Shown: positions 48,799 to 50,079 of the stretch, piece after piece
How positions within the stretch are numbered: position 1 is the stretch's first letter
Layout of the letters: every line of letters begins with the position of its first letter
IMG/VR virus record: IMGVR_UViG_2880412407_000004
DNA: 55,013 nt
Direction: 5' to 3' (one strand)
Source of the DNA: a virus
Lineage: Duplodnaviria > Heunggongvirae > Uroviricota > Caudoviricetes
The notes under the pieces: generated by a model
The model's database searches: none
What the model was told of the DNA's origin: nothing
What the model saw: the letters and a program-made list of their open reading frames with translations, nothing else
Program-made: the position numbers and the translations under genes

Positions 48799-48850
48799 CC
48801 CGACGGATGAGGTGTACTGGCAATAGCGGACACTACCATTTGTTCTTTTT

Positions 48851-49669
48851 TTAAGCAGCCATCTGATGATATTTTTCCCTGAAGGCTGCCGGGGAGATAT
48901 TCCCCAGACGAGAGTGACGACGCTGACGATTGTAGAAAATCTCAATGTATTCCCGTATTACTGAGATGGCTTCATCCCGGTTATTAAAACGATAGTGGCT
49001 CAGGCTCTCATTTTTCAGCGTTCCCCAGAAGCTTTCCATCGGAGCGTTGTCGTAACAGTTACCTTTACGCGACATTGATGTTTTCAGACCAAACTGCTCC
49101 TGTATGACCCGGTAATCGTATGCGCAGTACTGTGAACCTCGATCAGAGTGGTGGATTAGCCCGGCAGGTGGGCGCTGGCTCCTGAGCGCCATAAACAGAG
49201 CTTTACCTGTCAGCTCTTTTGTCATGCGCTCTCCCATGGCGTAGCCGACAATTTCGCACGTATAAACATCTTTGATGCCAGCGAGGTACAACCATCCCTC
49301 CTGTGTGGCAACATACGTCAGGTCCGCCACCCAGACCTGATTTGGTGCTGTAGGAGCGAACGTCTGGTTCAGCAGATTTGGCGCAACTGGCAGATTGTGG
49401 TTCGAGTTCGTAGTCGCTCTGAACTTGCGTTTCTGCTTACAGCGTAGCCTTAGCTCCTTACGAAGACGTGCCAGTCGGTCACGACCAACGATGATGCCAT
49501 TCTCTGCCAGCTCCGTCTGGAGCCGCCGGGTTCCATATGTTTCGCGAGTGCGGATATGTGCCACCTTAATCTCCAGTTTTAGCCGCTCATCACTTTGTTT
49601 TCTGTCTGAGGGTTCATGCTGTACCCAGTTGTAATAACCGCTCCTGGATACACCAAATACCTGACACAT
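48851..49669 (-). CDS. IS3-family transposase OrfB (DDE catalytic domain)
   Basis: 272-aa ORF with integrase-core motifs (WVADLTYV...HSDRGSQY...NAPMESFWGTLKNE); expected to be expressed as OrfAB by -1 frameshifting. Confidence 0.9.
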   Translation of the reverse strand: MCQVFGVSRSGYYNWVQHEPSDRKQSDERLKLEIKVAHIRTRETYGTRRLQTELAENGIIVGRDRLARLRKELRLRCKQKRKFRATTNSNHNLPVAPNLLNQTFAPTAPNQVWVADLTYVATQEGWLYLAGIKDVYTCEIVGYAMGERMTKELTGKALFMALRSQRPPAGLIHHSDRGSQYCAYDYRVIQEQFGLKTSMSRKGNCYDNAPMESFWGTLKNESLSHYRFNNRDEAISVIREYIEIFYNRQRRHSRLGNISPAAFREKYHQMAA

Positions 49670-49704
49670 CGCTTCAATGGGAAATTGTTGTCGCCATTGT
49701 TCGA

Positions 49705-50007
49705 TTAACGCGTATTTTTCAGCGACTCCTGTGCAAAATACGCTGTTGCTTTTTTTAATATATCTCGCTCAAGGCGAGCTTCATTTAACGCCTTACGCAG
49801 TTGCAGAATTTCAGATTCCAGTTCAGCCACCGTGCGGGAACCAGGAGTACCGAGCCCTTTTCTGGCGGCGGTAACCCATTGTCCTAAAGTGCCTTCAGGA
49901 AGAGATAATCGGGAAGCGCCTTCACTGATCGAAAGTTGATTTTCAAGAACCGTTCTGACAGCTTCGGCTTTGAACTCTTTAGAGTAACGTTGGGTTTTTC
50001 TGCTCAT
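49705..50007 (-). CDS. IS3-family transposase OrfA (helix-turn-helix, leucine zipper)
   Basis: 100-aa ORF MSRKTQRYSKEFKAEAVRTVLENQ...RDILKKATAYFAQES. Confidence 0.85.
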   Translation of the reverse strand: MSRKTQRYSKEFKAEAVRTVLENQLSISEGASRLSLPEGTLGQWVTAARKGLGTPGSRTVAELESEILQLRKALNEARLERDILKKATAYFAQESLKNTR

Positions 50008-50079
50008 TATTAGCTCCTTCTGATGCCATTCTATTTCAGGAAGGAGTGTCCGTTAAACTCAGGCTACCTCAGGATTCAC

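Follow-up and report, generated by a model that had tools for sequence, protein, structure and literature searches.

A complete IS600 copy between the tail-fibre gene and the nleG effector genes of a lambdoid prophage

Introduction

IS600 is a member of the IS3 family which was first described in Shigella sonnei and is abundant in Shigella and in non-O157 STEC. The IS3-family elements that dominate EHEC O157:H7 are IS629 and IS1203, which measure about 1310 bp, belong to another subgroup and have other ends. IS911, IS3 and IS2 are the mechanistic models of copy-out/paste-in transposition; the process was dissected experimentally with these elements, and we know of no such study of IS600. What has been reported for IS600 is a target sequence of 3 nt and mobility, by insertion as well as excision, in STEC O121:H19, where the IS-excision enhancer promotes the excision of a copy in lacZ (PMC9397093).

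Here we describe an IS3-family element in a viral DNA of 55,013 nucleotides (the window, i.e. the whole stretch that was analysed). With a probability of about 0.96 we regard it as an intact, presumably active IS600 that transposed into a lambdoid effector prophage, in the spacer between the tail-fibre gene and a conserved hairpin.

Structure and coding content of the element

The element covers positions 48808-50071 (1264 bp), has a G+C content of 48.9% and, as read from the sequence, carries all its coding information on the minus strand. It is the only IS600 copy in the window. An earlier note on this DNA had proposed an IS3-family element of 1264 bp at this location; the coordinates proved exact and all IS3 features are present. 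The length is within the family range of 1.2-1.55 kb, the ends are of the TG...CA type with imperfect repeats, orfB lies in the -1 frame, OrfA has a helix-turn-helix, OrfB has an RNase-H-fold DDE domain, and the target duplication is within 3-5 bp. The features are as follows.

48808-50071, minus strand: complete IS600 (IS3 family), with full-length 100% identity to PGAP-labelled copies
50045-50071, minus strand: IRL, the orfA-proximal terminal inverted repeat (TGAGGTAGCCTGAGTTTAACGGACACT on the minus strand)
48808-48834, plus strand: IRR, the orfB-distal terminal inverted repeat (TGAGGTGTACTGGCAATAGCGGACACT)
50028-50056, minus strand: sigma-70-like promoter site within IRL, reading into orfA, predicted by consensus scan only
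49705-50007, minus strand: orfA, encoding a DNA-binding protein of 100 aa with a helix-turn-helix and a leucine-zipper-like part (Pfam HTH_Tnp_1, 1.5e-20)
49750-49756, minus strand: slippery heptamer A AAA AAA in the orfA/orfB overlap, site of a predicted -1 frameshift (zero-frame codons AAA AAA)
49708-49747, minus strand: stem-loop (inverted repeat I9), candidate frameshift stimulator (fold -13.1 kcal/mol, z = -1.75)
48851-50007, minus strand: OrfAB transposase, 385 aa after the -1 frameshift, with HTH_21 and rve (DDE) in the orfB part

Both boundaries are sharp. On the left, GAAGTAACCCGACGGA gives way to TGAGGTGTACTGG exactly at 48808, and on the right the break between CTCAGGCTACCTCA and GGATTCACAAAAACCGGAGTCCGGCTCCGGTTTTTG falls exactly after 50071. 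The element accordingly starts with TGAGGTGTACTGGCAATAGCGGACACT and ends with AGTGTCCGTTAAACTCAGGCTACCTCA, after which the flank resumes with GGATTCACAAAAACCGGAGTCCGGCTCCGGTTTTTGTTGTCATGT. The termini read TGAGGT and ACCTCA; the outer six positions agree at six out of six, and further inward both ends share a GGACACT block (ACGGACACT and GCGGACACT), so that the inverted repeats as a whole are imperfect. The promoter-like site in IRL (TTAACG-17-TAGAAT) agrees with the consensus at 9 of 12 positions and is directed inward.

Downstream of orfA, a 272-aa ORF ending at 48851 on the minus strand corresponds to orfB and matches the Pfam families HTH_21, rve (3.2e-26), rve_2 and rve_3. Its frame is -1 with respect to orfA and remains open back into the overlap. 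Conceptual translation with a -1 slip at the slippery heptamer gives an uninterrupted OrfAB protein of 385 aa, which scores 414 bits (4.2e-124) against the NCBIfam model transpos_IS3, with a model cut-off of 160. The DDE triad of OrfAB consists of D229, D289 and E325, with the spacing (60 and 36 residues) that is expected for it. The same interval is annotated by PGAP as a 'programmed frameshift' CDS on an identical copy in strain 12689 (L001). The stem-loop I9 begins 3 nt past the slippery site and extends to just before the orfA stop codon. It possibly stimulates the frameshift, with a predicted stability that is barely above that of shuffled sequence (z as given above).

Identity as IS600

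From the length of 1264 bp and the sizes of OrfA and OrfB the element had earlier been taken for IS600, and the full-length 100% identity to PGAP-labelled IS600 copies bears this out. In a megablast search with the 1264 bp, 3,486 of 5,426 complete E. coli genomes gave matches; a place spanning at least 80% of the element occurs in 1,748 of 20,395 records, and a single genome can have as many as 43 places. The best matches are identical at 100% over positions 1-1264 and are all annotated as 'IS3-like element IS600 family transposase', on chromosomes as well as plasmids. The name IS629 or IS1203 occurs on none of the annotated matches. Use of the name IS600 here is based on RefSeq/PGAP labels and not on the ISfinder reference sequence, to which an identity of at least about 95% at the amino-acid level or 90% at the nucleotide level defines membership. 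Going by the sequence matches, membership is very likely and the naming settled in practice. A literature search for a published statement of the 1264-bp length returned nothing usable.

Insertion site and target duplication

The surroundings of the insertion are defined by the following features.

48550-48798, plus strand: tail-fibre C-terminal gene, intact (Pfam Phage_fiber_C, 2e-35; annotated in L001 and L002)
48805-48807, no strand: target-site duplication GGA, left copy (L001 and L002 have one GGA at the empty site)
50072-50074, no strand: target-site duplication GGA, right copy (L001 and L002 have one GGA at the empty site)
50078-50108, no strand: GC-rich palindrome (hairpin) that includes an A-run and a T-run (ACAAAAACCGGAG-TCCGG-CTCCGGTTTTTGT)
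50179-50754, plus strand: first NleG-family effector gene, 191 aa, intact (Pfam T3SS_NleG, 2.5e-45)

The tail-fibre stop codon TAA (48796-48798) is followed by CCCGACGGA and then by IS600. The element thus starts 9 bp past the stop codon, and on its other side, beyond the duplication, 3 bp separate it from the hairpin; the start codon of the first nleG lies 105 bp from the element. No coding sequence is broken by the element, and the tail-fibre gene and the nleG genes are intact. The Pfam assignments of the neighbours (Phage_fiber_C and T3SS_NleG) agree with the earlier placement of the insertion between the tail fibre module and the first NleG-like gene, a few bases before the hairpin.

GGA is present on both sides of the element in the window. 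The orthologous site (GAAGTAACCCGACGGATTCACAAAAACC) in strains 12689 (L001) and 2014C-3655 (L002) lacks the IS and contains GGA once. Because the empty sites of these relatives hold a single GGA, the 3-bp duplication that the earlier note had read from the window is demonstrated, beyond inference. A duplication of 4 bp, suggested by the reading GGAT/GGAT in the window, was rejected: the target duplications of other copies assign the T to the element as its first base, and the apparent fourth position arises because this T equals the next target base. In addition, the identical 191-aa NleG was returned in ten contexts, each of which consists of the tail-fibre C gene, 113 bp and nleG, with no IS between the genes. 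An unbroken version of the site (CCGACGGATTCACAAAAACCGGAGTCCGGCTCCGGTTTTTGTTGTCATGT) is also found within the window itself at 50935-50985; that the sequence split by the element occurs uninterrupted there was confirmed by reading and by alignment of the two repeat copies.

Hairpin, leader and the second repeat copy

The hairpin has a predicted stem of 14 bp, and its 60-nt context has a minimum free energy of -26.5 kcal/mol (z = -4.2). It occurs twice in the window, where none would be expected by chance. It is symmetric, with five A's on one side and five T's on the other, and consequently presents T5 on both strands. A consensus terminator scan did not call the hairpin at 50078-50108, because the T-run is paired with the A-run in the stem. 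A reasonable reading of this predicted structure is a bidirectional terminator that presumably ends the tail-fibre (late) transcript. Insertion of IS600 has increased the distance from the tail-fibre gene to the hairpin by 1267 bp.

The hairpin is part of a repeat (families D1-D3) in which about 110 bp from the 3' end of the tail-fibre gene are followed by the hairpin and a leader of about 35 nt. The second copy is located between the first and second nleG.

50839-51009, plus strand: second repeat copy, consisting of a tail-fibre 3' relic, hairpin and leader (D1-D3, 87-91% identity; alignment A1)

Its hairpin (50946-50976) is identical to the first, and alignment of the two copies revealed a 7-bp deletion and scattered substitutions in the former coding part. 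The segment 50839-50935 is a decayed fragment of the tail-fibre C-terminus, with 87-89% identity and the 7-bp deletion. The element had been described earlier as inserted into a repeat that precedes effector genes. The repeat is indeed present, but it is really made up of the tail-fibre 3' end, hairpin and leader, and its second copy is a decayed relic. This relic, which precedes the second nleG, records effector-cassette stacking by prophage recombination and is independent of the IS.

Hairpin and leader are also found past the tail-fibre genes of paralogous prophages, with nleG, nleH, an ospG-like kinase gene or an espF-repeat gene as cargo. Since the structure is conserved whatever the cargo, it is at the hairpin that late operon and effector cargo meet. 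A motif of about 30 nt past the hairpin (TGTCATGT to GATGTTTGTTA) recurs in L004 and L005 and is absent after the L006 hairpin; the coordinates of hairpin and motif are 50078-50141 and 50946-51009 in the window, 4672-4747 and 7534-7609 in L004, 4686-4760 in L005 and, for the hairpin alone, 4895-4925 in L006. This partly conserved motif could serve the cargo as promoter or leader, or mark a boundary at which effector cassettes recombine.

The position of the element next to these structures bears on its possible effects. Late transcripts would cross 1.27 kb of IS, antisense to the transposase, before reaching the hairpin. The hairpin and the conserved 70-bp leader are still attached to nleG, and the promoter-like site in IRL is directed into the IS and away from nleG; therefore no effect on nleG is expected, and the insertion would be neutral. 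It could instead be argued that the insertion alters tail-fibre or nleG expression, through uncoupling of the hairpin or through an IS promoter, and was selected, since the element lies so close to the hairpin (3 bp) and to the nleG start codon (105 bp), and since the ends of IS3-family elements carry promoter elements, with a promoter-like site found in IRL. We consider this unlikely: besides the direction of that site and the retained hairpin and leader, the insertion is unique to this sequence among those searched, with no sign of spread, and relatives tolerate IS600 inside the tail-fibre gene or nleG, which suggests relaxed constraint rather than selection.

Flanking genes and effector locus

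In relatives, the annotated start of the tail-fibre C gene corresponds to about position 48529 of the window. A protein identical to the first NleG is widespread in EHEC genomes. The genes that follow it are listed below.

51039-51626, plus strand: second NleG-family effector gene (Pfam T3SS_NleG, 2.1e-43)
51694-52329, plus strand: third NleG-family effector gene (Pfam T3SS_NleG, 1.8e-46)
52457-53515, minus strand: 352-aa ORF, annotated as T3SS effector EspW in relatives
53590-54240, minus strand: fourth NleG-family gene, in the remainder of the effector locus
54423-55013, plus strand: 'bfpT-regulated chaperone' gene, in the remainder of the effector locus

NleG proteins are recognized by a C-terminal U-box-like domain (PF06416), and all three downstream ORFs on the plus strand match it with values of 1e-43 to 1e-46. 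The 352-aa ORF at 52457-53515 gave no Pfam or NCBIfam match. The order of the locus is tail-fibre C gene, hairpin, and a cargo of four nleG-family genes, espW and the chaperone gene. The G+C content falls sharply at the insertion site, from 57% in the tail module (42000-48807) to 38.6% in the effector locus (50072-55013); such a low G+C content is typical of foreign cargo.

Host prophage and quality of the sequence

Positions 1-48282 of the window form a single alignment of 99.85% identity with a prophage of strain 2014C-3655, where the alignment begins at the integrase gene; for positions 50072-55013 the identity to this prophage is 100%. Strain 2014C-3655 is an STEC O121:H19 of lineage L1 (PMC8767318). 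Judged by this alignment, the window is a complete lambdoid effector prophage that is near-identical to that of the O121:H19 strain, and the source lineage is probably O121:H19. The window extends from the integrase gene to the exact end of the chaperone gene and looks like a predicted prophage interval. A second mobile element, at about 21792-24443, has the Q antiterminator region on one side and the lysis genes on the other; its three consecutive plus-strand ORFs of 243, 115 and 518 aa correspond to genes annotated as tnpA, tnpB and tnpC of the IS66 family in the matching 2014C-3655 prophage.

Comparison with the 2014C-3655 prophage revealed 14 single-base indels, all in homopolymer runs and 13 of them deletions in the window (13786, 17290, 28116, 28442, 31823, 33575, 34992, 35797, 35906, 38291, 42369, 45781, 48073 and 48109); further homopolymer sites are at 48429 and 48540. 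For the four sites of the tail-fibre region, the readings of two independent genomes coincide and differ from the window. The indels are probably sequencing errors, and it is because of them that the tail-fibre N-terminal gene appears split (47212-48123 and 48251 onward). IS600 and its junctions are untouched by the indels, with no differences of this kind between the element and other copies.

These indels show that the assembly is not error-free, and both IS600 and the flanking repeat are multicopy, which raises the question whether repeat collapse or a misjoin placed an IS600 copy here artificially. Such an origin is exceedingly improbable: a misjoin would not produce exact IS termini together with a duplicated GGA where relatives have a single one, and both flanks continue collinear with the reference prophage.

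Occurrence of the insertion and of IS600 in related genomes

The earlier note had proposed to survey the same junction in related genomes. Doing so gave the empty site in L001 and L002, and none of 5,426 complete E. coli genomes contains the exact filled junction. The junction is also absent from metagenome contigs, and neither its left nor its right side was found in GTDB species representatives. Two matches with 100% query coverage in complete genomes were rejected, as the search had joined flanks to IS600 copies at other positions. The insertion looks recent and strain-specific, and the 30-mers GAAGTAACCCGACGGATGAGGTGTACTGGC and CAGGCTACCTCAGGATTCACAAAAACCGGAG can serve as screening sequences for it.

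Eight other IS600 copies were found in or near comparable loci.

L002: in the tail-fibre N-terminal gene, triplets GGG / GGG
L001: in codons 3-4 of the first nleG, triplets CAT / CAT
L004: in the tail-fibre gene of a paralogous prophage, triplets GAC / GAC
L006: in the tail-fibre gene of a paralogous prophage, triplets AGA / AGA
L018: in another nleG, triplets TAT / TAT
L019: behind nleC, triplets CTG / CTG
L005 (3001-4264): abutting a tail-fibre fragment and truncated genes, no target duplication
L017 (3002-4265): adjoining truncated genes, no target duplication

All nine copies, including that of the window, are exactly 1264 bp long and differ from the window copy at 0-4 bases. Perfect 3-bp duplications, of unrelated sequence, flank six of the eight other copies (seven of nine with the window), and no target consensus was seen among the seven duplicated triplets and their flanks. 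The nearby insertions in relatives are independent of that in the window. The copies in L005 and L017 exemplify deletion or recombination mediated by IS600 at loci of this type; in L017 a fusion links a portal gene with the middle of the first nleG, and the whole tail module is missing.

A route other than direct transposition would be insertion of IS600 into the tail-fibre/hairpin site of a paralogous prophage, followed by transfer to the present site through homologous recombination. The flank has a median of 12 places per genome in these strains, hairpin and leader are conserved past the tail-fibre genes of different prophages, and recombination between prophages at such loci is well known. 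None of the searched genomes has IS600 at this site in any paralogue, however, as matches combining flank and IS all lie elsewhere, and both flanks have 98.9-100% identity to the orthologous prophage of 2014C-3655. This makes the detour via a paralogue very unlikely, and we retain direct transposition into the present prophage.

The accumulation of at least nine independent IS600 copies in or near tail-fibre/effector regions, one of which (that of the window) is 3 bp from the hairpin, might indicate that IS600 is drawn to the boundary, for example by the hairpin or by local DNA structure. If so, IS600 would be a specific driver of the loss and shuffling of effector cassettes in non-O157 STEC. 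The chance of this is slight, given that the copies were found through a flank in the query, that the triplets lack a motif, and that IS600 occurs elsewhere in many unrelated genes. Every copy found near a tail-fibre gene has the orientation of the window copy, in a listing in which the opposite orientation could not appear; an orientation bias was rejected, the search having joined same-strand pieces only.

Discussion

On direct transposition, the target of IS600 would have been the 14-bp spacer from the stop codon of the tail-fibre C-terminal gene to the late-operon hairpin. The intact copy in the window is presumably active. Most translation would yield OrfA, and a -1 ribosomal slip at A AAA AAA would fuse OrfA to OrfB, giving the DDE transposase OrfAB. 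OrfAB would then copy the element out as a circle and paste it into a new target, where staggered cuts 3 bp apart would leave the GGA duplication. We infer copy-out/paste-in via a circular intermediate for this IS600 by analogy with established work on the IS3 family.

The insertion is of an ordinary kind, already known in kind, and its significance lies mainly in annotation: the element should be labelled IS600, and its tail-fibre and nleG neighbours are to be regarded as intact. The insertion also adds a portable homology that can seed IS-mediated deletions and rearrangements of the effector locus, as in L005 and L017. As a strain-specific IS600 site it could furthermore be used as a typing marker (IS-printing) within the probable O121:H19 lineage.

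Comparison with known systems

The target of the insertion is the boundary of an exchangeable effector locus, of the type known as 'morons' past the tail-fibre genes of lambdoid prophages in EHEC and EPEC. This likeness concerns the surroundings of IS600 and not the element itself. The element resembles IS911, IS3 and IS2 in the predicted production of OrfA, and of OrfAB via a -1 frameshift on an A-rich heptamer with a stem-loop, in the DDE core and in the TG...CA ends; a 3-bp duplication is shared with IS911 and IS3. With IS629 and IS1203 it has in common the family, the two-ORF frameshift layout and the build-up in prophages and effector loci, and IS600 shares with them the susceptibility to excision promoted by the IS-excision enhancer (PMC9397093). 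The closest relationship is to RefSeq-annotated IS600, with which the window copy is the same over the full 1264 bp; the 3-bp duplication and the layout of orfA, -1 frameshift and orfB are common to both, and only the insertion site is new relative to the genomes searched.
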